From: an uncultured virus (IMG/VR IMGVR_UViG_3300024279_000006)
Lineage: Duplodnaviria > Heunggongvirae > Uroviricota > Caudoviricetes
Strand: one strand, 5' to 3'
DNA length: 64,000 nucleotides
IMG/VR virus record: IMGVR_UViG_3300024279_000006
Span: 1-64,000 of that record
Positions 3,330-63,244 of the stretch are shown here, one piece after another; within the stretch, counting starts at the first letter, position 1; every line of letters starts with the position of its first letter. The translations under genes and the position numbers were made by a program. The notes beneath the pieces are model-generated. The model saw only the letters and a program-made list of their open reading frames with translations. It ran no database searches and was not told where the DNA came from.

Positions 3330-3953
3330 ATGGGAACTCGGGAATATCACCGCGCGTATTATTTGAAAAACAAGGAGAAATTAAAAGCGAGAAGCAAGGC
3401 TTATTATTACAGCAATTCAGACGCTGCGCTGGAATTGAGAAGGCAGAACAACGCGAAAAGAACTCCTGAGCAAATCGCCAAAGATAAGCAATATCATCGC
3501 GAGTGGTACGAGAAGAACAGAGAGAAGCAACTTGCGAACGCAAAAGAAGATTACCGACAAAACCCTGAGCCAAAAAAGCAGAGCGCACGGAGATACATCC
3601 GACATCTGCCGAAAGACATCCATTCCAAAAGATGTCGAGCGAGGCTCATTTCTGTCTTCCACACCACGGAAGAGTGGTATCTGGCAAAGCTGGAATCTCA
3701 AGGAAACCGCTGCGCGCTTTGCGAACGTGTCCGAGAAGAAAACGGAAACCGTCTCGGGATCGACCATGACCATTCCTGCTGCAAGAAATATGGTTCGTGC
3801 GGGAAATGCTTGCGCGGAGTTCTTTGCCGCCGATGCAACGTTCTTGTGGGCAACTTAGAAGTTTTGATTTCTCTTGGGTTGGATATATCGGGCGAGTGTT
3901 CGGGTTGGGTTAAAAAGGCACTTGAGTATCTCGGGAAATATCGGGGGAATTAA
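3330..3953 (+). CDS. Endonuclease VII-family (HNH) nuclease
   Basis: QGNRCALC...IDHDH..C....CGKCLRGVLCRRCN motif with basic N-terminal repeats. Confidence 0.85.
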   Translation: MGTREYHRAYYLKNKEKLKARSKAYYYSNSDAALELRRQNNAKRTPEQIAKDKQYHREWYEKNREKQLANAKEDYRQNPEPKKQSARRYIRHLPKDIHSKRCRARLISVFHTTEEWYLAKLESQGNRCALCERVREENGNRLGIDHDHSCCKKYGSCGKCLRGVLCRRCNVLVGNLEVLISLGLDISGECSGWVKKALEYLGKYRGN

Positions 3954-3954
3954 A

Positions 3955-4290
3955 ATGGCCACGCCAGCACTTGCAAGGAAGACAGTTATTCGTCCGCGCG
4001 ACAAGTGGGTGATTATCCGAAAGTTCATCCGCGGCGAAGAGATTCGGGACGGCATCATAATCCCGGAAACGAAAGACGACCGTTCCCAGCGCGGCGAAGT
4101 GGTAGCACTCTCACGGTGCGCGGGGCGCACGGCAGACGGAACCGAAATTCCCTGGGACATCAAAGTGGGTGATGAGGTGATCTTCACCAACTACCCGATG
4201 GACATCCCAGCAGTGGAAGAGTTGACCGGAGAACCAAACCTGGTGCTGGTACAGGCCGATGAAGTCTTCGGAGTCGCAGAAGCAGCATGA
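3955..4290 (+). CDS. groES: Co-chaperonin GroES-like protein
   Basis: IRPRDKWVII...GIIIPE...GEVVA...IKVGDEVIF signature; start moved to ATG 3955. Confidence 0.85.
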   Translation: MATPALARKTVIRPRDKWVIIRKFIRGEEIRDGIIIPETKDDRSQRGEVVALSRCAGRTADGTEIPWDIKVGDEVIFTNYPMDIPAVEELTGEPNLVLVQADEVFGVAEAA

Positions 4291-45245: not shown

Positions 45246-45651
45246 CTTCGCGAACTGTTCAATTCCAAATTTCTAGAATCCGCATAATCGCCAAGTGGGT
45301 CCCAAGTCCATTCGCAGACCTGTACGCGGCCGGTGCGGTCACAGATTAGGGTATGCACCCAATTCCCTGCGCGCACGATCCTGCCGGCGTCAGGGTCGTC
45401 CAGAAGTACCTGAAATTCAAGCACTGCGGCCATTCAGTACTCTCCCGCTGCTGCATCGCGCACGGCCTGGATGTTGCTGGGGCGCGGGGCTTCGAGCATG
45501 TAGCCGCCGCAGTCTGGCTCAGGGCAGCCAAATCCAGTTCCCTCACTGCCATCTGGCGCTATGCACGGCTCGCATTCCAGAAGCGTGCAGACTTTTCCGC
45601 ATTTGGTGCAGCGCATTGGTGTAGTTAGGATTCTAGCCAGCGTCTTGCCGC

Positions 45652-45957
45652 TCATTCCGGCCACTCTGGAATCTCTATGGTTTGCCCAGCCATTTTGTGC
45701 GTGCAGTCTCCTAGAAATTGAATCTTTCCATCGGTCACGAACGAATGGCAAATTGGGGCTGTTGGATTGCCGCCACCAACATTGACTAGTAGACTCGGTG
45801 TGAAAGTTGGGCTATCTATGTTGCCATTCCAGTTCCAAGCGCGAGGATTGCCGCGTACCGGGATGTTATGTGCGCTCTCGCAGCCAGGGCAGTGAAACGC
45901 TACCCAAGTTTCCTCGCTATCAGCCATCTTGCCAATTGTGACGTGTAATTTGCTCAC
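45652..45957 (-). CDS. DUF6527-like protein
   Basis: FHCPGC...WNWNG...PTFTPSL...CHSFVTDGKIQF. Confidence 0.7.
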   Translation of the reverse strand: MSKLHVTIGKMADSEETWVAFHCPGCESAHNIPVRGNPRAWNWNGNIDSPTFTPSLLVNVGGGNPTAPICHSFVTDGKIQFLGDCTHKMAGQTIEIPEWPE

Positions 45958-46830
45958 GGCTCCCCCTGACAGCTCTTTAGAATGGCGTCCAGCGTGGCCA
46001 TATACTCGCCAGGCAAGTCGTTAATACACTCATCGCCAAATTCTTTGACTATAGCCGCTATCGCCGCTTCCCGCCGCGCTGCACGAATCCCTTCGTTCGA
46101 TTCCCGGCCAAGAAAGCTGTTTACCTCGAAGGCGATGGATTGCACCAGTTCTCGCGCCGCCCCACAGCCATAAACGTTGAATCCCTGCTGAATCGCATCC
46201 TCTAGTGTGTTGTTGCTCATGGGCGTGGCTCCGGTGGAAATATCTCCGGGTTAGGAATCCAATCGCTGCCAGTTAAATCTAGTCTGAGATTGTACGGATA
46301 GTAAGGACTTGCGATAAAACACTCATCGCACAGGAAATAGCCCTCCGAATTGGGGTGTACTATCGGCACTGATTGATTGCATCTCTCGCAAAGCAACTCG
46401 ACTTCACACAGCATTGATATAGTTCCTGTCTGTTCACTCATAGCTTCCCTTCCTTCTCGCTCGCGGGGGTGGAGAGCAGTGCTTCAAGTTCTTCTCGTAG
46501 ACCGTCAATGAGTTCCAGCGTCCCTGTGGGCCACTTTCTCAGGTCTTTTTCCTGCCACGTCTTAGCGCGTTCAATTAGACGTTTGGCCTTCAATTTCTGC
46601 GTAACGTCCGATTGGCACGCATTGTCACCGTCTAATTCAAGCGTGTCGTCACAATCTCGCTTCTCCTGCGGGGCAGCGTCCGGCTGGCGAGCGGCGGCGC
46701 AAAGTGTATCGTGTCCTACATCCCAAGGTTGCGCACAGACAGCGCAAATCCGCACTGGCCCACCCTCCGGCATCCTCTCCCCTTTCTGCAAGGCTACTCG
46801 ACGCTGGACTGATTTCGATTTCATTTCCAT
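45954..46830 (-). CDS. Three coupled small hypothetical genes (45954-46220, 46217-46441, 46438-46830)
   Basis: Overlapping stop/start codons; CxxC motifs. Confidence 0.55.
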
Positions 46831-47972
46831 ATTTTCCTCCGTCTAAAGCCAGCTTGCTCTGGTATGAACTTCCGATGCTTCAGTTCTTCCACCTGAACTT
46901 CCGATGGCGGCACCGGATTTCTGACGGGCGTTTTATGCGCCCTCTCGTGGCTCATTCCAAGCCCGACGATCAACGTGTTGATGGCCGCATTGCAATCACG
47001 GTCATGCTCGGCACCACAGCCGCACGTCCACCGTCTTACCGCAAGCCCGCTCAATCCTGTAGGACCGGACAGGCTCCCGCAGTTTGAGCAGCGCTTGGTG
47101 GAATTTCTAGACTCCGGCTCAACATAGACCGCACCGCCTGCACGGCTCTTGTACGTCAGCATTGAGCGAAGCTGCCCGTGGCCAGAAGAAGCCACAGACT
47201 TACCGAAACGTTTTGCAATCCTATTGTGTGAATCTTTGGAGAAGGCAATCAGAACATTCTCGGATACCAACTGCCGAGAAATCTTGTGGTTACGATCTTT
47301 CCGGCGATTTCGGATGCGCTCTTGGATTCTAGCGGTTAGCTTTCGATTCCGTGCTCTCTGTGCTTGGCCCAGTCGCTGCGCTACCGCTTCCAGCTCTCGT
47401 GGATGCTCAATGATTTCGCCGGTGGATGCGGTCAGCAGGTTCTTGAACCCCGCGTCTATGCCGATCTGACCGCTTGCCTTGCGAGGGATGGCGTTCGGCT
47501 CCGCGTCGATGAACAGGCAGTAATACCAACCCGAAGCGCGGCGTACAATTCGAGCGCACTTAATCTTTCCCTCTGGCATCTCCTGTTTATGAAACTTGAC
47601 CTTCCCTAACCCGCTCACATGGATGCGAGCAGCCTTTGGCCGCAAGATTTGAGCGGAAAATGGGATGGAGTTTAGGCGGTTGCGGTTTCCCTTTAGACGG
47701 GGCTTTTTGGACAGCTTTTTGAAACAACGCATCCACGCCTGATGCACCGTGAAAATCGTGCATTTTAGAACCTGTTTCGGTATCTCTAGTCGAGTGCAAT
47801 GGCCCACAAGCATCGCATCCAAGTCATACTTGGAGTGGTAAATCTTATCCCTGGCATCCAACTCGATCTTCCGAACAGCCCAATTCCATACCCCTGTCAG
47901 CCTGAACAGCCAGACTTCGAGGGTGGCTTCCTGGGCCTTAGTCAGTCGGAGCTTGAGTTGGCACTGAATCAT
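46821..47972 (-). CDS. tnpB: TnpB-family protein with atypical RuvC-II (possible nuclease-dead TldR type)
   Basis: N-terminal LRL...VWN, RASGWY, RuvC-I GIDAG, Zn finger CSNCG...WTCGCG, RuvC-III HDRDCNAAIN; RuvC-II reads IAFSKD instead of xxEDL. Confidence 0.9.
   Translation of the reverse strand: MIQCQLKLRLTKAQEATLEVWLFRLTGVWNWAVRKIELDARDKIYHSKYDLDAMLVGHCTRLEIPKQVLKCTIFTVHQAWMRCFKKLSKKPRLKGNRNRLNSIPFSAQILRPKAARIHVSGLGKVKFHKQEMPEGKIKCARIVRRASGWYYCLFIDAEPNAIPRKASGQIGIDAGFKNLLTASTGEIIEHPRELEAVAQRLGQAQRARNRKLTARIQERIRNRRKDRNHKISRQLVSENVLIAFSKDSHNRIAKRFGKSVASSGHGQLRSMLTYKSRAGGAVYVEPESRNSTKRCSNCGSLSGPTGLSGLAVRRWTCGCGAEHDRDCNAAINTLIVGLGMSHERAHKTPVRNPVPPSEVQVEELKHRKFIPEQAGFRRRKIWK
46849..46906 (-). 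repeat. CRISPR-like mini-array: 2 x CATCGGAAGTTCA with a 16-nt spacer
   Basis: Exact 13-bp repeats at 46894-46906 and 46865-46877; spacer GGTGGAAGAACTGAAG; second guide TACCAGAGCAAGCTGG... Confidence 0.7.
46878..46970 (-). ncRNA. omegaRNA-like scaffold 3' part plus first guide (5' boundary unknown)
   Basis: Minus-strand hairpins GGCTT/GAGCC, GGGCG/CGCCC and CCGGTG/CATCGG ending in AAGTTCA, overlapping the tnpB 3' end as in IS200/IS605 right ends. Confidence 0.65.
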
Positions 47973-48005
47973 TTCACGCCCGTTCTTCCACGTTCACGCG
48001 CTCGG

Positions 48006-48176
48006 TCATTTTGCCACCTTCATCATCGTCCAGCAGCCGCAGTTTGGACACGTCATCCGGCGCGGAACTTCTTTCCCTACAGGGAAACTCATTTGCGCTT
48101 CAGTGCCACAATTCGAGCACCACACTTTTACTGAGTACTGTCTGGCCGCTTCCGGTTCCCGCTCACTTGCTGCCAT
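48006..48176 (-). CDS. Zn-ribbon protein (56 aa)
   Basis: Manual translation MAASERE...WCSNCG...CPNCGC...; GGGAG upstream. Confidence 0.55.
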   Translation of the reverse strand: MAASEREPEAARQYSVKVWCSNCGTEAQMSFPVGKEVPRRMTCPNCGCWTMMKVAK

Positions 48177-50235
48177 GTTCCCGCTCCCTTCGCTTGTCGC
48201 CGCGCACTGTAAAGCGCTTCCTAAACTCTCTGGTTTGAGTCGTGAAAATCCTCACTAAGCCGGTTCTCCAAGCTCGGCAGTACTGTCTGCCGTACTCCGT
48301 GTCGAGGAACTCATATTCGTCGGCGCTGATGAGTCCGTTTGGGTATGCGTCACGGAGGTCACAGGCTCGGTTGTAAATCGCGTCGATCTTTCTCCTCTGC
48401 CGTTTAAGCACCTCGGCATCCAGAGCCAAGAACAATTTGAGGTCATCCAGCGTCCGCTTGCGCTCACTCTTCGGCATGTCCTGGCTCCCTTTTTTGTTGC
48501 GGCACAAACATCGGCTTGACATGATACATTTCGTACATGCAGGCGGCTAAGTGGCACGCTTCGCGCAGTTCGGTCGGCGTATATTTGGCCTCGCGCATGT
48601 GGTAATAAAACGTGTCCACAAGTACATGGAACGTTGCATCGTTGTGATACCGTTCCTCGACTGGCGTGCGATTTGGGTACAAATTCATTGCTGCGTTATT
48701 CTCGCCCATCCCCTTCACCCATCCTCTCTGCTGCGCTCAGGGGCGCGGCGCTCAACAATGCTTTGCCATCCACCAAAACTTCACTTTTACGAGTTCGTTG
48801 ATATTCTTCCAAAGGCGCTTCAGTCCATCGACGCCGCCATTTTCCTCGAAGCACTTTCGGCAGGTGAATGGGTTGCCTCCGGCGCTCGACCCATCGTTTG
48901 TAAATATCCAGCGGAACTCGTCGCCAGCCTCAAACTTGTGTCCGCAGAAGTAGCAGCGAAACCATTTACCGTCCTTGCCGCCAGACCAAGGCAACTTGCA
49001 CTGCTCTGGCGTAGCGTGAACAAAATCAATCATCCAATCTTGCATCCCGTTCCCCCTCACTTGGCTCCCGCGCAGGAGCCGCTAGGCTCGCTGGCCACGA
49101 CTAGTCTCTTCGTGCTGCTGCCGCTCCATCTCTTCGTAATAAGCCTTTGATTGCTCAACACAGGCATCGCAAACGCCGCAATCCATGCAATCGTCAGGGT
49201 CGCGCTCGTCATCCTCAGCATCCGGCTCACAAACGCATCTGCGCTGCCCACAATACGTACACAAGCCCTCGCCAGTAATCCAAGCGTCTAATCCGTCCAT
49301 GTTCCACCCCTCTCCGATGAAGGTTGCTGGCCGCGCCGCTGGGTCACAGTTTCAGCGTTGCCGGGTCGAACCACTTGTTCTTCATCAAATGGCCGATTCG
49401 CAACACTCTGCCGCCAACGCCTTCTGTCTCAACGCGGCAATGCTGCCCTTTCAGTTTCTCCCAAGTTTCCACTTCTAGCGTCCGCAGAATGGCGCCAATG
49501 AACTCCATGCCGTAAGCCGTCCCTACTCGGCGCTTCAGTTCGTTTTTATACTCGTCCAGCGCGTAACCACCGAAGCCGCAACCCCAGCCATCGCCAGAGA
49601 GATGCAAGTAGCAGCTAAAGATTCCGTGGTCCTCGACGCCCAAAGTCGTTGCTACAATCTGGACATTCTCAATTTTCATCTCCGCTCCTCCTCGCCACCG
49701 TCAGGCAGCGAGCGAAAGTCACCTTACCGCTTACTCTCGGCCTTCGTCAGCCTCCGGCAGAGCCACGCGGTTTTATTCGCGTAGACCTCGAAGCGCGTGA
49801 AGCATGGCTTGCAGCACTGGCTGCCCCGCACCTTTCGCACCACCACTTGCTTCGCTCGACAGTTCGAGCAAGTGCCCATAAACTCCCTACGCTTACCTGG
49901 CCTTCGTCCGCTCATCCGCTTCCTCCCGCGAAACTCGATTGCTGTGCCGATACCTAGCGGCTCTGGCTTATCGGCGTCAGCCAGCCACGCGATTCTGAGC
50001 CATGTAATTTTCTAAGAGTTTCTGGGTATGGTTCGCAGACAAAGTAGCCGCCGCCGCTATGTGCGGTACGCTCTTCGACATGCCAACCATCGGGACAATT
50101 GCAATAGCCAATAATGGGACCAGCAAGTGGACCCCCCTCACTCGGAAATTTACAATTTGGCTCAGGAGCTTTTTTATCAAGTAGCATCACCATCCTTCCC
50201 CGCGCCAGTAGCGCTCGAAACTCGATTGCTTGCAA
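48163..50235 (-). CDS. Run of small early hypothetical genes (e.g. 48464-48718, 48752-49060, 49082-49300, 49344-49679)
   Basis: Closely packed minus-strand ORFs with SD sites; several CxxC; boundaries partly uncertain. Confidence 0.5.
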
Positions 50236-51159: not shown

Positions 51160-52005
51160 TCATGCCACTTGGTTCTTGTGAGTCAACAATGGCATTTGTG
51201 GTTGTTCTCCAAATAGCTTCAGCGCGTCGTGCACGGCATCCATTGGCCAACCTTGTTGATTCAATAATTGTAGAAAACCCAACGTGTCACCCCGCAGTAA
51301 GCAAACTTCTGCTGTGGTGGTCTTGCGGGAATGACATGGAATGCACGTCGTCAGTAAGTTTCTGCCGTCGTTAGAAGCGAACATCCGAAAGGGAACTATG
51401 TGGTCTACGTGCAAAATAACACCGCGCTCTTTGATTCTTCCACACACTCGGCAAGTATTTCGATCTCTCTTCCGAATTTTTTTAGACTTCTGCGGCCAAT
51501 CCGTTCCCCTAAAATGGTCATCTCCTCGGAATTGAGGCGAGTTTACGCCTCGATTGTGCGCAATGAAACATTGGCGTGAGCAAAAAGTTCGTTTCACCCG
51601 AGTCCTTAGTGCTTTAGCACGTTGGAATATATTTCGACAATGGGGGCAACGGAGGGATATTTTGGTATCTTGGGTAGCACCTCGACATTTTCGCGAGCAG
51701 AATCTCCTGTTGGTCGTCCGTTTAGATTTGAAGTCTTTCTTGCAGGTTTGGCATTTTAGAACAACCCATGCGTTCCTAAAGACGTTGTAACACTCCCTTG
51801 AGCAAAATCGCGTGCGACCTGTAGTCCTCTCAACGGTCCAAGTCTTTTTGCATATAGAGCAGGTTTTAGTTGGTCGTTTGGATCGTGAATGCTCATAGAA
51901 ACAACGTGGAGAGCAAAACTTGGTTTTCACACTTGGGCGAAATGGGAAGTATTTAACTGGACTTCCACATTGTCCGCAAGGGCGCGGCTCACGGTCTTTA
52001 TTCAT
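51160..52005 (-). CDS. HNH endonuclease with four CxxC...FCSxxC zinc repeats
   Basis: RDRNTCRVCG...HVDHIVP...NLLTTCIPCH. Confidence 0.85.
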   Translation of the reverse strand: MNKDREPRPCGQCGSPVKYFPFRPSVKTKFCSPRCFYEHSRSKRPTKTCSICKKTWTVERTTGRTRFCSRECYNVFRNAWVVLKCQTCKKDFKSKRTTNRRFCSRKCRGATQDTKISLRCPHCRNIFQRAKALRTRVKRTFCSRQCFIAHNRGVNSPQFRGDDHFRGTDWPQKSKKIRKRDRNTCRVCGRIKERGVILHVDHIVPFRMFASNDGRNLLTTCIPCHSRKTTTAEVCLLRGDTLGFLQLLNQQGWPMDAVHDALKLFGEQPQMPLLTHKNQVA

Positions 52006-52006
52006 C

Positions 52007-52471
52007 TCAGTACGCTTTCTTCGTGCCGGCTAGATTCTGAATCTCGTCATGGGACAGGTCCGCGAAGCAAGCATTGAGAAACTCTATTAGGTCGTCGCTG
52101 GTTTTCAGTTCCGCGTGCATCTCTAATCTCTTCACTGTGCGACACCATTCGTCGGCCAACGAACGCGAGACACGGTAGCGAAGGATTGTGTCCGGTTCCT
52201 GCTTCTCGGCCTTCCTAGAGGCTGCAAATGCTGAAAGTGTGGTTCCTTGTCCGGCGGCGGCGATAGCTTTTTCGTTCCAACCCTGCTCTCGCTTATGGTG
52301 AACGGCTTGAAACTTCCGCTTGATCGTCGCCTTCGTTGCTCCGGTAGCTTTGGCCAGTATTTCGGCTTCACGGTCCACGTGCTCAGGTCCACACTGGAAA
52401 GCAATTGAGACAATGGCCGCCCATGCGTTGCCGTGGCTGGCGATGTACTGCTGCATGGAGCTGGGAGTCAT
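52007..52471 (-). CDS. Hypothetical protein
   Basis: 154 aa, coupled to bet. Confidence 0.55.
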   Translation of the reverse strand: MTPSSMQQYIASHGNAWAAIVSIAFQCGPEHVDREAEILAKATGATKATIKRKFQAVHHKREQGWNEKAIAAAGQGTTLSAFAASRKAEKQEPDTILRYRVSRSLADEWCRTVKRLEMHAELKTSDDLIEFLNACFADLSHDEIQNLAGTKKAY

Positions 52472-54117
52472 GGATTAAACAGGGTTCCTTCTCGCCCAGG
52501 AGCGCGGTCTTTCTGTATCACTGGCACCTTGCCGTCAAATTCTCGTCCAGCCAGCATCTTGAATCCGACTAGGTTCCAAAAGTCTCCGTTTTGCGTTACC
52601 AGAAACTCCCCGCTCTTGCCTTTTGCCTTACTGACGTATTCAAACAGGTCACGGTCAAAAGCAGAGTACCAACGGTCTCCGCTTTCGGTTTTGATGAGCA
52701 CGTTCATGTACGGCGCCGACGGCTTGCGTGCGGAGCCTTTCGTCATTTTCTCGGTGAAGTGTTGGATGGTTCCTTTTACAATAGACGGCGCAGTGCTGGC
52801 AGAGGGCACAGATCCAGCACTGGCCGTGGGTTTTGAGTTTGTCTCCTTTCGTGAGGTTGTGGGAGCAGCCGCACTTTGAGCCGCGGACGACGCGGCCTTG
52901 TTTTGTGCTACTCCCTTTCCCTGTGGGGGAACTTGTTTGGGTAGAATCTCGATCACGCGGTAATTCAACTGCTGCGCCATCGCGTGAATAGTGGCAACGT
53001 CCGACGGAAGGATGTGCCACCAGTCACCCGCCCATTTCGCCGTGCAGTGCTTTTGAATCAAATCGAGCAGGTTTCCCAAGTCACCGCGGATGATTGGGTC
53101 GTTGGCGTCGGTAAGGTCTAACTCGATGGTTCCGTTAGGGGATTGGGGCGCGGCGATGTCTATTGCCGCGTTCTGCGTCTCCGGCTGGTCACTCGCCGTA
53201 GTTTTCGCAGCCTTCGCGCCCACAAGTTCAGCATCGGCCGCTTCCACGCGTGCAAGAGCGGCTTCGGCTTGCTTGGCTTTCTCGGAGCCTGGTTCGTGGC
53301 CATGCGCAAGTTTTTCGTCCAACACTTCTTGCTGCCGTTGCTTTCCAAGTTGCCGATGCGCTTCGTAGGTTACAGGCTGGCCGGATGGCGTGAATCCGTT
53401 GGCGTCGGTAATGATGCGGCCGCCTTCGGTGTAGTCCTGATCGGCTTGTACCATTTCTTCGCTGGTGTAAATGTCGGACAGGTCCGGGTAGCCTTTGCGA
53501 ATCGCTTGAGCTTCGGCGCATTTCGCTAACATTAAACGGGGCATACGGTTGTAGAAGTCAGCCTTAGATTCGGTCAAATCTCGCGGCGCAAACTCATCCC
53601 AATACGCCACGCCAACGATAGGATGCTCTAATCCCTTCTTCCATAACCGGATTGTGGCGCTCTCTGGTATCGGCTTCCCGGCTGGTGTCTTGATGCCAGA
53701 CATTACAAACTGCGGTTCATCGCACCCGCCAAAGTCTTTATGATGACGTCCGGCCAGCGCTCGCAGTCCGTCGATCCCCATCTGGATTGTCATTTGCTTT
53801 CCGGCAACCCAAATTCCTTTTTCGTCCGTGTGGTGTTTGGTGACGTTGCGCATCACGGCGTAAATCTGGCGGGTGATGGGATCTAGCTTGTGCTTGCGGC
53901 AGGTCCAAAGGAATAGCGCAAACTCGTCGTTGCTGGCGCCCTTGCACACCGTCCGCTTGAGTAGTTCGATCTCGTCGCCAGTCAGCGCGCGCTCACGGTT
54001 GCGCTGCACGATAATCGGCCGCGGGAGTGCTACCGCTGGAACGATGGCGCTAGAAGGGGGTTGTTTCGTCTTTGTCGGTTTTGAACGGCTTGCGCGCTTC
54101 TTTGTCTTCTTCGGCAT
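52468..54117 (-). CDS. bet: Bet/RecT-family single-strand annealing protein with long C-terminal extension
   Basis: FLWTC...LDPITRQIY...GIDGLR...MPRLMLAKCAEAQAIRKGYP...IYTSEEM. Confidence 0.85.
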   Translation of the reverse strand: MPKKTKKRASRSKPTKTKQPPSSAIVPAVALPRPIIVQRNRERALTGDEIELLKRTVCKGASNDEFALFLWTCRKHKLDPITRQIYAVMRNVTKHHTDEKGIWVAGKQMTIQMGIDGLRALAGRHHKDFGGCDEPQFVMSGIKTPAGKPIPESATIRLWKKGLEHPIVGVAYWDEFAPRDLTESKADFYNRMPRLMLAKCAEAQAIRKGYPDLSDIYTSEEMVQADQDYTEGGRIITDANGFTPSGQPVTYEAHRQLGKQRQQEVLDEKLAHGHEPGSEKAKQAEAALARVEAADAELVGAKAAKTTASDQPETQNAAIDIAAPQSPNGTIELDLTDANDPIIRGDLGNLLDLIQKHCTAKWAGDWWHILPSDVATIHAMAQQLNYRVIEILPKQVPPQGKGVAQNKAASSAAQSAAAPTTSRKETNSKPTASAGSVPSASTAPSIVKGTIQHFTEKMTKGSARKPSAPYMNVLIKTESGDRWYSAFDRDLFEYVSKAKGKSGEFLVTQNGDFWNLVGFKMLAGREFDGKVPVIQKDRAPGREGTLFNP

Positions 54118-54340
54118 GTTCTTCCTCGATCTTTCTGCATGGAAACTTTGGCTTGATGGTTTTCAAGAAGTGACTGCCCTTTGACTCGGCTTGCTGAAAC
54201 GCTTCCCAATCCGCCGGCGTAAAGTTGCTGTAGTGGTAGACCTTCTCCGGGTGAGCACGAAAAGACAATTCAAGCACTTGGCTTGCTGCGTCATAAGCGG
54301 CGGTAGAAAGCAAAGATGATTCAATGGCGGTTCTCTTCAT
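54050..54340 (-). CDS. KTSC domain protein
   Basis: SSLLSTAAYD...LELSF...YHY...AESKGSHF...IK; AGGAG SD. Confidence 0.8.
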   Translation of the reverse strand: MKRTAIESSLLSTAAYDAASQVLELSFRAHPEKVYHYSNFTPADWEAFQQAESKGSHFLKTIKPKFPCRKIEEEHAEEDKEARKPFKTDKDETTPF

Positions 54341-54803
54341 ATTTTCTCCTTGCGACGCTGATCTTGCGCCTGCGTTCCTTTTCTGTTTCTGCTGTGGGTT
54401 TCCGTCGATTAGCCGATTGCTCTTTTCTAGTTGCCCACCGGCAATTCCCAGGTTCATAATTGCCGTCGTTGTTGATTCGCTCTATTGTGTGCAGCGGAGT
54501 TGGTTTCGGTCCCATGTCAGCTAGAAAATTTGCAAACTTAGCCCACCGTTCGCACACTTTAATGCCCCGTCCTCCATAGTAAGGAAAGGCCACGGCTTTG
54601 GGATTTAGGCACCTGTAGCGCATCATGAACCACGACCTTCGCTCTGGTGAGTAACCTTTACGTTGAAAGTACTTTCGCTTGGCTTCCTTTATCTGTTCCA
54701 GGTGTTCGGCACGATATTTGTGTACTCGTGCCAAAATCTTGTCCCTGTTCGCTAGATAATAAAGATGAGCAGAAAGTTTCCTCCGGTCCGTTTTTGGTTT
54801 CAT
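54321..54803 (-). CDS. HNH homing endonuclease
   Basis: YGGRGIKVCERW...FLADMG...RINNDGNYEPGNCRWAT. Confidence 0.85.
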   Translation of the reverse strand: MKPKTDRRKLSAHLYYLANRDKILARVHKYRAEHLEQIKEAKRKYFQRKGYSPERRSWFMMRYRCLNPKAVAFPYYGGRGIKVCERWAKFANFLADMGPKPTPLHTIERINNDGNYEPGNCRWATRKEQSANRRKPTAETEKERRRKISVARRKYEENRH

Positions 54804-57558: not shown

Positions 57559-57744
57559 ATGGCCAAAGCAGGTAGACCACGTAAGGAAAAGACCAAAGTA
57601 CTATACATTCGGCTCTCAGAAACAATAGCCAAAGCTCTTCAAAAGAAGGCCCAGAACGAACGGCGCGGCCTCTCCGATACAATCTCCATAATTCTCGAAG
57701 GTAAATCCACTCTGTATCCACCGGCCACCGATGCCAGACTTTAA
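57559..57744 (+). CDS. Arc/ribbon-helix-helix regulator
   Basis: GRP...VLYIRLSE...AL...AQNERRGLSDTI. Confidence 0.7.
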   Translation: MAKAGRPRKEKTKVLYIRLSETIAKALQKKAQNERRGLSDTISIILEGKSTLYPPATDARL

Positions 57745-58180
57745 GAAGAACGCGCGGGTGCGATTAAAATACGCCGTTGATACCGGCAAGCTAAAGCGCC
57801 TTCCTTGCGAAGTTTGTGGCGAGGTCAAGTCGGAAGGGCATCACGAAGATTACACACTTCCTTTGGAAGTCCGCTGGCTCTGTAAAAAGCACCACATAGC
57901 CGAACACCGTAAACATCTAAAGTCTAAGTGCCAACCGTTGCTTCGCAGGAAAACCTTTACTGAAGCAGAGTTGCCACTATTCATCTTGGCGCTGTCTGAG
58001 AAGTGTGGGTCGCAAAAAGACTTCGCTAAAAAAATGCGGATTTCACCGTCAATGCTGAGCGACATGATCTCGGGACGCCGAAACGCTTCCGACAAATTCT
58101 TGGCGAAAATCGGACTAGAGCGCGTGGTGACTTACAGATACATAGTCAACTCGCTTCCTTTGCCCGTTTCAGCGGTCTAG
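57731..58180 (+). CDS. HNH-like Zn domain fused to a Cro/XRE HTH
   Basis: PCEVCG...HHEDY...VRWLCKKHH; SQKDFAKKMRISPSMLSDMISGRR. Confidence 0.7.
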   Translation: MPDFKKNARVRLKYAVDTGKLKRLPCEVCGEVKSEGHHEDYTLPLEVRWLCKKHHIAEHRKHLKSKCQPLLRRKTFTEAELPLFILALSEKCGSQKDFAKKMRISPSMLSDMISGRRNASDKFLAKIGLERVVTYRYIVNSLPLPVSAV

Positions 58181-60583: not shown

Positions 60584-61123
60584 ATGTCTTCGTCACGGAA
60601 CAAAGTCCGAGTTTTAGCCCTAAAGCATCTTGGAAATAAGTGTGCCAACCCTGACTGTCGGTGGCAGAACGCAGACGGCTCTTTCGGCTGTGACGACCCG
60701 GACATGCTCCAGATCGACCATCCTTCCGGTAGTGGCAATATTGACCGCAAGACAAGGAATCTTCACACCATTTACCGAGATGTTCTGAACGTGCCGCTTG
60801 GCACCTATCAACTACTTTGTGCAAACTGCAACTGGAAGAAACGGAAACTGAACGCAGAAGTTGTAGGACGACCCCACACCGAAGCGAACAAGCAACGTAT
60901 TTCCAATGCACTTCGAGGGCGTATCAGAACAGCGGCGCATCGCGCCAATATATCTGCGGGTGGCAAAGGCAAGCATAGCGTCCCATGTCCCGAAGAAACG
61001 AAGCGAAAACTTTCAGCAATCCACAAAGGCCGCATAATTACGCCCGAATGGAGAGCCAAGATTTCAGCGACTAAGCGACTGCGCAACGCCGCCGCTCGCG
61101 GTCAAGCGGAATTACCCCTGTGA
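60584..61123 (+). CDS. HNH endonuclease with NUMOD3 repeats
   Basis: LQIDH...YQLLCANCNW; HTEANKQRIS / EETKRKLS repeats. Confidence 0.8.
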   Translation: MSSSRNKVRVLALKHLGNKCANPDCRWQNADGSFGCDDPDMLQIDHPSGSGNIDRKTRNLHTIYRDVLNVPLGTYQLLCANCNWKKRKLNAEVVGRPHTEANKQRISNALRGRIRTAAHRANISAGGKGKHSVPCPEETKRKLSAIHKGRIITPEWRAKISATKRLRNAAARGQAELPL

Positions 61124-62754
61124 CCATAGAAGTACAAAGAGACGAAGGCTCGCGCAATATAAGCGACTTTTATGTCCCGTGGGCGCACCAGATTGCCTTT
61201 CATATATCTCCAGCAAAATTCAGATTACAAGTTGGTGGATTCGGGAGCGGAAAGTCGAGACCGCTTTTAATGGAAGCGGTGTTCCATGCGCTTGAGTATC
61301 CTGGGAGCAACAGCATAATTTTACGCAAGACCATACCAGACATGAAGCGGACCGTGATTGACAAGTTCTTGGCGGACGTTCCGCGCTGGGTGTACGAGTT
61401 CTACCACCAGGGCGACCACATCGTTTACTTCCACCCGCAACCGGAGATCGGATTAGACGGCAAGCCGACAGGCAAGATGCTGCAAAGCAAACTGTTCTTT
61501 GGTGCCTGCGAACGGGAACAGGACGTTGGAAAGTATCTCTCCACTGAGTACGTCTTTATTGGCTTTGAGGAATTGGGCGAGTTCTCATTCGCCATTTGGG
61601 ACGCGCTGGCCGGCCGCAACCGCTGCCCGATACCTGGCGCACGCGCAACGATGGGCGGCGCTACTAACCCGATGGGTATTGGTTGGTCCTGGATTAAGAA
61701 GCTCTGGAAAGACCATAAGCCAGTGCAGGGGATGGACGCGGACAAATACAACCCTGCGGATTATGAGTTCTTCCACTCGACGGTAGACCAGAATCCAATT
61801 TACGCGCAGGACACGGAGTACATCGCTACGCTTGAAAAGTCTCCACTGCGGGACAAGATCCGCTGGGGCAACATGGATTCCGTCTCCGGGCAATTCTTTG
61901 ACAATTGGGAACCGAAGCGGCACGTCCGGCCAGCGTCAGACTTCCACTTTGAGGACTGGCAGCCAGTTTGGATTGGCTACGATTATGGATTCGGCCACTT
62001 CGCCTCAATCGTGTTTATGACTAAGGCTTTGCTCAAGCCGCGATGGGACGGTGAGAAGCCCCGCATGGTTAACGTTGTAATCCAAGAATTGTGGATGCAG
62101 GAAAAGACTCCAGAGTTCCAGACTAACGCACTGGTCTCTTCTATCCCACGCTTTCAAGAACGACGAGAGATTGCCGCTGGCGAATCGTTTTTTGAGGAAG
62201 ACCAAGCGAAATTTGAGCGGAGTCAGGAAGGCTATCGGTGGAATATCAGTTCAATCCATTTCTCCTGGGAGCGGTTCAATCGAACAGTAAGCAATCGTAC
62301 CGTGGCTGATGAAGTCGGAGATATTCTAGCGGCCGCTGGATTGCCTCGCCCAACCCGTTCAAATACTGATCGAATAGCTGGATGGCAGAAAGTCTACAGC
62401 CTTCTCGACTCTGATGAATTATTTGTCTTGAATACCTGTACTGCGGTGGCTGAAGCAATTCCAATGTTAGTGCGAGACCCGATTCATTTGGAAGACGTTC
62501 AGAAACCAAAGGGAGTCAGTCTCAACGATGATTTGGGGGATGCCCTTCGCTATGCGGTGGCGGGGGCACTACTTGACCCTGAAGATAAACCAGAGCACAT
62601 TAAAAAGCGAGAGAAATACGCTGCGATTACAGACCCGATGCGCCGCGCCGCTGTAATGTATAAGGATTACAATCTAGAACGCGCCAAAGAGCGCAGGCCG
62701 CAGAAGCCAATTACAGTGCCGACTTGGTACAGAAGAGTTAAACCAAATGCGTAA
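61120..62754 (+). CDS. terL: Terminase large subunit
   Basis: GGFGSGKS Walker A, FIGFEE Walker B, GATNP, GYDYG and DDLGDALRYA nuclease motifs. Confidence 0.92.
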   Translation: MTIEVQRDEGSRNISDFYVPWAHQIAFHISPAKFRLQVGGFGSGKSRPLLMEAVFHALEYPGSNSIILRKTIPDMKRTVIDKFLADVPRWVYEFYHQGDHIVYFHPQPEIGLDGKPTGKMLQSKLFFGACEREQDVGKYLSTEYVFIGFEELGEFSFAIWDALAGRNRCPIPGARATMGGATNPMGIGWSWIKKLWKDHKPVQGMDADKYNPADYEFFHSTVDQNPIYAQDTEYIATLEKSPLRDKIRWGNMDSVSGQFFDNWEPKRHVRPASDFHFEDWQPVWIGYDYGFGHFASIVFMTKALLKPRWDGEKPRMVNVVIQELWMQEKTPEFQTNALVSSIPRFQERREIAAGESFFEEDQAKFERSQEGYRWNISSIHFSWERFNRTVSNRTVADEVGDILAAAGLPRPTRSNTDRIAGWQKVYSLLDSDELFVLNTCTAVAEAIPMLVRDPIHLEDVQKPKGVSLNDDLGDALRYAVAGALLDPEDKPEHIKKREKYAAITDPMRRAAVMYKDYNLERAKERRPQKPITVPTWYRRVKPNA

Positions 62755-63244
62755 AATGTTGGACCTGAGCGGGAGAACATTCGGGAGATTGAAAGTTCTC
62801 TGGCCAGTTGGCAGAGTTCGGCATGTACGCTGGTTGACCGCTTGTGAGTGTGGCGCGATGCGAATGGTTGCGAGCCACCATCTCGTAGCCGGTGGAGTAC
62901 AATCCTGCGGTTGTTTGGTCCGCGATACGAGCCGCGAACTAATGAAACGTCTACCGCAGTTACGCCACGGCCACGCAATACACGGTAAAATCTCGCGGAC
63001 CTTCCGAAGCTGGGATGCCATGCGCCAACGATGTTTGAACCCTAACTCAAATAAGTTTTCACGATACGGCGGTCGTGGGATTACAATCTGCAAGCAGTGG
63101 GATAGGTTCGAGACGTTCTTGGCCGACATGGGGCCACGTCCGATTAACATGACCATCGACCGAATCAACAACGATGGAAATTATGAACCGGGAAATTGCC
63201 GGTGGGCTACACCGAAAGAACAAAGAGCGAATCGTTCTAATTGA
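62747..63244 (+). CDS. HNH homing endonuclease
   Basis: DLSGRTFGRL...CECG...SCGC...YGGRGI...DRINNDGNYEPGNCRWAT. Confidence 0.85.
   Translation: MRKMLDLSGRTFGRLKVLWPVGRVRHVRWLTACECGAMRMVASHHLVAGGVQSCGCLVRDTSRELMKRLPQLRHGHAIHGKISRTFRSWDAMRQRCLNPNSNKFSRYGGRGITICKQWDRFETFLADMGPRPINMTIDRINNDGNYEPGNCRWATPKEQRANRSN

Follow-up and report, generated by a model that had tools for sequence, protein, structure and literature searches.

Doubled omegaRNA right-end tail behind the tnpB gene of an uncultured tailed phage, most likely a rearrangement remnant

Here, we describe the tnpB locus of an uncultured tailed phage (Caudoviricetes; IMG/VR record IMGVR_UViG_3300024279_000006), as found in positions 1 to 64,000 of that record (hereafter, the window), which are part of a virus record of 68,065 nucleotides (nt; ~68 kb) rated complete. 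The tnpB gene belongs to a cassette of the IS200/IS605 family, and the right end of this cassette, where its guide RNA scaffold (omegaRNA) terminates, is followed on the minus strand by a second copy of the last 13 nt, CATCGGAAGTTCA, with 16 nt between the two copies. This doubled right-end tail is a real, non-random feature of the genome. The 16-nt intervening piece comes from the element itself, namely, from the sequence next to its left border, and the doubling is not conserved among the relatives of this tnpB. We regard a remnant of a rearrangement, rather than a working mini-array, as the most likely explanation of the locus. Specifically, with a probability of roughly 0.55, the extra 29 nt would be a vestigial, internally deleted mini-copy of the element, consisting of the start of the left end and the tail of the right end, in tandem behind the full element.

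The right end and its doubled tail

On the minus strand, the parts are arranged in the order GTCAGAAAT-CCGGTG-CCGC-CATCGGAAGTTCA-GGTGGAAGAACTGAAG-CATCGGAAGTTCA-TACCAGAGCAAGCTGG (coordinates in Table 1). The two copies of the repeat are identical at 13 of 13 positions and lie 29 nt apart from start to start, exactly as the original prediction, which was made from the sequence alone, had described them. They are the only copies of CATCGGAAGTTCA, whether the window is searched with up to 2 mismatches or the full record of 68,065 nt with up to 1. The pair is also the single exact 13-nt direct repeat at a spacing of up to 60 nt in the 64-kb window, and any such repeat appeared in 3 of 200 mononucleotide shuffles of the window. 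The flank behind copy 2, TACCAGAGCAAGCTGG, is unique in the window at up to 3 mismatches, and exact scans of IMG/VR yielded 0 matches both for the flank pattern after copy 2 and for TGAAC followed by the 16-nt piece.

The same arrangement is present in a Logan contig of the soil DNA run X1, which spans positions 46662-48300 with 0 differences; because X1 is probably the source sample, this contig represents a second assembler and not an independent sample. In the other two soil DNA runs inspected, X2 and X3, tnpB is represented only by diverged fragments from relatives. No contig without the 29 nt was found in X1-X3, although contigs drop rare variants, so that these contigs say nothing on minority alleles.

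Right ends across the family were placed by a combination of regular expressions and alignment. The 3' regions of relatives have in common the motif CAGGAAT, a 6-8-bp hairpin and then AGGTTCAA (or GCATCAA), and diverge afterwards. In a metagenome-assembled genome of Acidobacteriota, six copies of the element (L103-L108) are identical through GGTTCAA and differ immediately beyond it, which fixes the position of the right end. The omegaRNA scaffold overlaps the 3' end of tnpB and stops at the right end, and the flanks beyond it vary in the multi-copy genomes. The alignment of the terminal module from 35 sequences gives a consensus hairpin of 5 pairs, with compensatory changes in every pair. The hairpin in the window, U-CCGGUG/CAUCGG-A with the loop CCGC and the tail AGUUCA(G), is in register with this consensus, and therefore CATCGGAAGTTCA comprises the whole 3' strand of the terminal hairpin together with the tail, which confirms the assignment made in the original prediction. 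By comparison with TTCAA in relatives, the right end may extend to the G at 46893 as its final base. A scan of positions 45500-49500 against Rfam recognized no family, the only hit being RydC at 23 bits, compared with a gathering score of 48.

At the other border of the cassette, the relatives with a canonical left end, a conserved sequence of ~85 nt with a hairpin, always carry (A/T)TGAAC directly in front of it, which identifies TGAAC as the transposon-adjacent motif (TAM) of the family; some subgroups of relatives share only TGA(A). In the window, the 33 nt between the stop of a small upstream open reading frame (ORF) with CxxC pairs and the tnpB ATG read CCGAGCGCG-TGAAC-GTGGAAGAACGGGCGTGAA-ATG, and thus there is no room for a canonical left end. 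An nhmmer profile built from 26 canonical left ends found none in the window either (best E-value 0.18, within tnpB). The same layout, with (A/G)TGAA ~15-21 nt ahead of the ATG, recurs in several other viral copies. Read as its reverse complement, the GTTCA of the right-end tail gives the family TAM as well (TGAAC; TTGAACC in relatives), at 46865-46869 and 46894-46898 on the plus strand, so that, on the opposite strand, every right end presents a TAM that faces inward, and the doubled tail presents two.

The intervening piece can be traced to this left border. Base for base, its positions 2-11, GTGGAAGAAC, repeat the 10 nt directly after the left-border TGAAC (46883-46892 and 47982-47991; 10/10). 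Among the 173 TGAAC sites on both strands of the window, the left border is the only one with a seed match of more than 3 nt to the 16-nt piece (10-nt seed, 12/16 overall). The match derives its weight from being in register, beside the TAM on one side and beside the right end on the other. The left border itself reads TGAAC+GTGGAAGAACGGGCGT, and an allele with the mini-copy would read TGAAC+GTGGAAGAACTGAAGC. When GGGCG is passed over, the TGAA at positions 12-15 of the piece also corresponds to the final 4 nt of the leader, which is weak support by itself. For the flank TACCAGAGCAAGCTGG, no TAM-flanked match was found in the window, the best seed being 7 nt.

We considered whether resemblance between the flank and the TAM-adjacent border is a general rule and rejected it: in 20 hairpin-less loci, the seed matches of each locus to its own border were 10, 6, 6, 5, 5 and 5 nt plus 14 zeros, 23 of 380 mismatched control pairs reached at least 6 nt, and only the window stands out against the controls. 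The first 5-6 nt behind the right end recur after a TGAA, GGAA or TGAC motif upstream of tnpB in L013 (TACTTA, 6 nt after ATGAA), L046 (TATTGA, 6 nt) and L019 (CACTG, 5 nt after GTGAC), which is within the control range and a hint only. In L019, the local alignment of the upstream and downstream regions is not significant (200 of 300 shuffles reach its score).

The doubling is rare in the family. Relatives were fetched with their DNA from 17 IMG/VR loci, the best 80 of 126 metagenome loci and 17 genome-contig loci, and the survey covered 73 unique loci, the window included, in which the sequence continues for at least 120 nt beyond the anchor. Since generic repeats of at least 9 nt are common (142 of 730 random 300-nt control windows of the loci), only repeats that involve the tail were counted. 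A second right-end copy was detected in 3 of the 73 loci (the window, L069 and L079), in three different architectures, none of them with three units. In L069 (positions 1401-1540), a complete right end is followed directly, with no spacer, by a whole second 3' omegaRNA module of 63 nt, the hairpin of which shows compensatory changes relative to the first and agrees with the right end of locus L074, making this locus a tandem of two related scaffold ends. In L079 (positions 3563-3660), the right end (…GGGGAGGTTCAG) is followed by 35 nt and then by a second hairpin with tail (AAGCTTTAGTCGTGGGGAGGTTCAA) with three differences. When the fetched loci were searched with a regular expression for further mini-elements, only L079 was recovered.

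The canonical terminal module was recovered at 33 IMG/VR loci, of which 25 are unique, and none of these 25 has a copy of its last 13 nt (up to 2 mismatches) within 150 nt downstream. Doubled GGGAGGTTCA tails 10-40 nt apart were found at 11 IMG/VR loci, all of which are coding sequences or other tandem repeats, and none are omegaRNA ends. The closest relative, L019 (79% at the amino acid level), has a single right end; its nucleotide similarity to the window starts one base before the ATG and stops near residue 344. The original prediction had proposed that homologues be searched for a conserved second repeat, and by this measure it largely fails. Relatives of this tnpB occur together with Y1 TnpA and in multiple copies, as in L103-L108.

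Repeats of other kinds were noticed behind the right ends of several relatives. In the IMG/VR locus L129, the flank (guide region) just behind GGGGAGGTTCA is a perfect tandem duplication of ~31 nt (AAAGGTATCTGTTGTAAATGCAAAAGAAAA, twice). About five tandem units of ~22 nt (TGACTCAC....TATCGCTG..) start right behind the right end in L049 (positions 1894-2000); these are array-like and unrelated to the right-end sequence. L011 carries AGTTCTC-type tandem units of 7-8 nt directly behind the right end (positions 4093-4125), and L135 a 6-nt duplication of the tail (GGTTCA|GGTTCAA).

Origin of the extra 29 nt

The mini-copy that we favor would combine the first 10 (perhaps 14) nt of the left end with the last 13 nt of the right end, and could be the remnant of a right-end/left-end junction. 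In the IS200/IS605 family, such junctions form on circularization or when a second copy lands at the same intact TAM. The present arrangement could have been reached through another insertion at this TAM, through recombination with the element in circular or tandem form, or through template switching in recombinational repair, and the RecT-like annealing protein of the phage could serve recombination or template switching. Together with several HNH endonucleases, this protein makes for a setting rich in break-induced recombination, which we count in favor of a remnant. Also in favor, right end 1 is in the family register and is backed by covariation, and copy 2 lacks a 5' strand with which to form its own hairpin. 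TnpB would then be an ordinary single-guide enzyme that takes the 16 nt after right end 1 as its guide, and copy 2 would be a passenger and not a CRISPR-like repeat. This guide (guide 1) would perfectly match a phage allele that holds TGAAC and the mini-copy alone. Its match to the left border of the element itself is confined to the 10-nt seed. Going by what ISDra2 TnpB requires of a seed, this would probably not suffice for cutting, and the element may in this way be protected from self-cutting.

Several observations weigh against a mini-copy. Taken as a generic local alignment between the upstream and downstream regions, the 10-nt match is not significant, its score being reached in 61 of 300 shuffles, and the five bases that separate the left-end copy from copy 2, TGAAG, can be accounted for only with an additional 5-nt deletion (GGGCG). 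Tandem full-length copies were not seen in the fetched loci, where all 60 matches of the left-end profile sit upstream of tnpB; in L079, the 35-nt stretch is left-end-like only by eye (a GTGAGCG motif), and the profile finds nothing there. Insertion of a second copy at the same TAM is disfavored as a route because the left-end hairpin needed by Y1 TnpA is absent. The perfect repeats (13/13 and 10/10) also fit selection, and the 16-nt spacing is a typical TnpB guide length. Finally, blastn against the GenBank phages returned no relative of this phage and the two flanking phage genes had no match in IMG/VR, so that no empty-site allele could be found; nor did the GenBank phages, IMG/VR or the soil-run contigs provide a related phage with an empty, mini-only or single-end allele by which the events could be ordered.

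Among the alternatives, a scar of break repair fares best, and even this we consider unlikely. TnpB-type enzymes cut 15-21 nt from the TAM, as known for ISDra2. In this scenario, the original flank GTGGAAGAACTGAAG|TACCAGAGC lay beside TGAAC and was cut by TnpB ~15-16 nt from the TAM, and imprecise repair then filled the cut with 13 nt templated by the nearby right-end tail, 10 nt of the target being retained at the left junction. Copy 2 indeed starts 15-16 nt after right end 1, at the expected cut position, and the partial copy of the target beside the TAM at the left junction and the RecT-like protein of the phage are consistent with such an event. However, the scenario requires two separate imprecise junctions, there is no priming microhomology on either side of the 13-nt insert (GAAG|CATC vs CCGC|CATC; TTCA|GGTG vs TTCA|TACC), and the IMG/VR scans contained no allele with the assumed original flank.

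The original prediction had instead read the locus as a functional two-guide, CRISPR-like mini-array, a minimal proto-CRISPR in which the CCGGUG strand would pair with either CAUCGGA copy. Two ribonucleoproteins, with guide 1 or guide 2, would result. The repeat does correspond exactly to the 3' strand plus the tail, both copies are perfect, and the spacing is 16 nt. Partition-function folding of three transcript lengths predicts pairing of CCGGUG with copy 2 at 0.15-0.25 and with copy 1 at 0.74-0.85; pairing with copy 2 would need a 33-nt loop in competition with a cis hairpin that has a 4-nt loop. Duplication of omegaRNA segments is, moreover, the route proposed for the origin of type V arrays, in serial form, in the account of Altae-Tran et al. 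2023 (PMC10691335), and TranC systems are presented as transposon-CRISPR intermediates (Jin et al., Cell 2025, as summarized in the review PMC13565253). Nevertheless, the locus has two 13-nt repeats only, a single, self-derived "spacer" and no Cas1, and the arrangement is not kept in the 73 surveyed and 25 further viral loci. Guide 1 would aim at the border of the element itself, with no obvious benefit, and no TAM-flanked target of guide 2 is present in the window. Hence, the interpretation as a mini-array is not supported, and we rate its probability as low. The same low rating applies to its boldest form, in which a working two-guide omegaRNA arose by natural "guide capture", the tail having been re-joined to TAM-adjacent DNA at the nearest TAM, its own; from one transcript and through the alternative pairing, one TnpB complex would then sense the border of the element or the mini-copy allele, and the other would home to the empty phage allele.

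Guide 1 could also act as a regulator, a possibility that we view with somewhat greater doubt: as a self-directed partial guide, it would bind without cutting upstream of the tnpB start and throttle expression in a TldR-like manner, and copy 2 would keep the homing guide available. The only seed match of the window that is flanked by a TAM occupies positions -19 to -10, counted from the tnpB ATG. A precedent is offered by ISDge10 TnpB, which is outlined in PMC13507860 as switching between cleavage and repression by guide length, and by the TldRs covered in the review PMC13565253. In the relatives, however, the corresponding matches are at most 5-6 nt and within the controls, and a single locus offers no evidence from conservation.

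Still less credible is a nested insertion beside an older, independent stump, whereby copy 2 would be the tail of an earlier element, the present element would have inserted 16 nt upstream, and the 10-nt match would be coincidental. The right ends of L069 and L079 are followed by second, diverged right-end modules, as would be expected of old stumps. In the window, by contrast, copy 2 is undiverged (13/13) and lacks both the 5' strand and all other scaffold parts, the 10-nt match beside the TAM stands apart within the set of 173 sites, and no TGAAC precedes the 16-nt piece inside the putative older element. A chance repeat or an assembly artifact can be practically dismissed, because, common as generic repeats of at least 9 nt are, the only closely spaced 13-nt repeat of the window, of a kind seldom produced by shuffling, sits exactly on the omegaRNA end, and the contig from the second assembler is identical.

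The tnpB cassette and its phage

The cassette is an IS200/IS605-family tnpB cassette of what we call the phage type, with the TAM TGAAC, a 19-nt leader in place of the hairpin left end and no tnpA, situated between two small phage genes. The identification of the gene as tnpB in the original prediction holds: the protein matches OrfB_IS605 (PF01385; 36.6 bits, cut-off 30.5; E-value 6e-9) and TNB (PF07282; 63.2 bits, cut-off 26.3; E-value 3e-17), and its best natural relative among solved structures is ISDra2 TnpB (8bf8/8h1j; E-value 7e-20). The overall top structure match is an AI-designed nuclease (9yyg_A; E-value 1.9e-20), and the LaTranC structures are distant sequence matches (E-value 2e-10). 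Homologous proteins numbered 1885 at an E-value of at most 0.001 among 4718 candidates; among the 120 matches listed, most homologues are 343-403 amino acids long and cover ~90% of the query.

In the alignment to 9yyg_A, as distinct from one to ISDra2 TnpB, the aspartates of RuvC-I (IGIDAG) and RuvC-III (HDRD) are aligned. The position of the RuvC-II glutamate is taken by a serine (AFSKD; window 47230-47245, minus strand). Both S245 and D247 are invariant in an alignment of 12 family members, and hence the whole clade probably has a rearranged active site. A "rearranged RuvC-II" class with a relocated glutamate, including some virus-specific clades, is outlined by Altae-Tran et al. 2023 (PMC10691335), and, as judged from the motif, the AFSKD serine of this family matches that class.

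The conserved part of TnpB extends from residue 1 to ~345 (~46938-47972). Because the alignment of homologues stops near residues 343-345, the final ~38 codons of the ORF are a read-through over the right end. The usual stop near residues 348-350 is absent, and on the minus strand the ORF continues over positions 46821-46937, across the end of the omegaRNA, the two repeats and the flank. The protein of the closest relative (P0002, 381 amino acids) likewise carries a long C-terminal extension, which is unrelated. The read-through stop of tnpB (ATGGAAATGA) is overlapped by the ATG (46830) of the downstream phage gene.

The whole virus record contains one tnpB copy, and neither Y1 TnpA (PF01797) nor Cas1 (PF01867) was detected in its 68 kb. 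The cassette is non-autonomous and, judging from these sequence features, is probably immobile or capable of homing only. Matches to PHROG families indicate a tailed-phage genome, with small and large terminase subunits, an endolysin, a RecT-like annealing protein, a Dam-type methyltransferase, an endonuclease VII and at least five HNH-type endonuclease genes. Stand-alone nuclease genes are unusually numerous in this phage: besides tnpB, they comprise the endonuclease VII gene and at least five HNH or homing-endonuclease-like genes. Two further repeats in the window were noted. The near-identical 14-nt direct repeat GTTCCCGCTC(A/C)CTT, with 22 nt between occurrences, lies at 48155-48190 on the plus strand, where two small ORFs upstream of tnpB overlap. 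CGCGAAGTTCA occurs twice, 15 nt apart, at 822-847 on the plus strand within the ORF 7-1116 (coding AKF..AKF); it has GAAGTTCA in common with the right-end tail, which is probably a coincidence.

Table 1. Positions in the window of the parts of the tnpB cassette and of other phage genes mentioned in the text
Feature	Position	Strand	Remarks
Upstream 56-amino acid ORF	48006..48176	-	two CxxC pairs; no PHROG match
TGAAC, family TAM	47992..47996	-	at the left border; 19 nt lie between it and the tnpB ATG
Leader/minimal left end, GTGGAAGAACGGGCGTGAA	47973..47991	-	19 nt; no hairpin
tnpB ORF, 383 amino acids	46821..47972	-	OrfB_IS605 and Cas12f1-like TNB domains
Right end 1 (terminal omegaRNA module)	46894..46923	-	family consensus and covariation; begins with CAGAAAT
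Right end 1, 5' strand CCGGTG	46911-46916	-	
Right end 1, loop CCGC	46907-46910	-	
Right end 1, 3' strand CATCGGA	46900-46906	-	
Right end 1, tail AGTTCA	46894-46899	-	
Repeat copy 1, CATCGGAAGTTCA	46894..46906	-	
Intervening piece, GGTGGAAGAACTGAAG	46878..46893	-	16 nt; would be the guide of an ordinary omegaRNA made from right end 1
Repeat copy 2, CATCGGAAGTTCA	46865..46877	-	lone 3' strand and tail, no 5' strand of its own
Phage flank behind copy 2, TACCAGAGCAAGCTGG	46849..46864	-	"guide 2" of the original prediction
Downstream phage gene, 130 amino acids	46438..46840	-	no family; ribosome-binding site GGAGG at 46836-46840
RecT-like annealing protein gene	52468-54117		PHROG match
Stand-alone nuclease gene set	3330-3953, 51160-52005, 54321-54803, 57731-58180, 60584-61123, 62747-63244		

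Relation to known systems and significance

The element belongs to a known kind, of which the locus is a structural variant. It resembles the IS200/IS605 TnpB/OMEGA systems typified by ISDra2 TnpB (PDB 8bf8/8exa/8h1j) in the OrfB_IS605 and zinc-ribbon TNB domains, in the omegaRNA that lies over the 3' end of the gene and in the TAM at the left border. Unlike autonomous IS200/IS605 elements, it has no tnpA anywhere in the 68-kb record and no left-end hairpin, and, unlike ISDra2-type OMEGA, its family has a serine in place of the RuvC-II glutamate, its ORF reads through the right end and its tail is doubled.

As in the TranC systems and in the proposed origin of type V, part of the omegaRNA 3' end recurs downstream of tnpB, in the place that the arrays of type V occupy. 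In contrast to these systems, as far as they are described in the sources cited above, the window has no separate tracrRNA and no cas1, and holds two 13-nt copies and one self-derived piece that are not conserved in the clade. Neither does the locus resemble a CRISPR array: several repeats of ~23-40 nt with unique spacers of similar length are replaced by two 13-nt copies and one 16-nt piece in the record, this piece matches the left border of the element and, together with the TAM, gave no match in IMG/VR, Cas1 as an adaptation gene is absent, and the few doubled loci (3/73 and 0/25) are all different.

Irregular omegaRNA-like arrays with repeats of more than 60 bp ("alternative guide capture") are mentioned for a TnpB cluster in PMC10691335. 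These likewise consist of repeated omegaRNA-derived sequence beside a tnpB-family gene, and, going by this outline, the 63-nt module of L069 comes closer to them than the window, in which the repeat is 13 nt long, is present in two copies and encloses a piece from the element's own left border. The 13-nt tail duplication with a self-derived intervening piece was not found described in the titles and abstracts of the literature searched.

PATE-like mini-elements derive from IS200/IS605 elements by deletion of everything but the ends. The 29-nt unit is similar in that it joins a left-end start to a right-end tail with the interior missing, and differs in being far shorter and in tandem directly behind a full copy; lacking a hairpin, it is not itself mobilizable. 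The cassette can also be compared with the free-standing homing endonuclease genes of phages outlined in the review PMC13565253, as a solitary nuclease gene is here set among phage genes and the genome has several other HNH endonuclease genes. By analogy, this tnpB probably spreads by cutting alleles that are devoid of the gene, except that, unlike in homing endonucleases, target recognition would depend on an RNA guide and a TAM.

Type V arrays are thought to come from duplicated omegaRNA ends, and natural first steps of this process are rarely seen. The locus described here illustrates one concrete way in which such a duplication may come about: the right-end tail is repeated, and the element's own TAM-adjacent sequence is caught between the copies, an event that is rare and unconserved in this family. 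If the second guide is used, the locus would be a living first step from an omegaRNA to a CRISPR array, a transition that could then be tested in a construct of 1.2 kb, and L069 and L079 would suggest that such steps recur in phages. If it is not used, the locus is a negative example, in which the look of repeat, spacer and repeat can stem from a tandem or junction remnant. In either case, it documents a hairpin-less, tnpA-less phage type of this TnpB family, which is placed in phage operons in the manner of a free-standing homing endonuclease.

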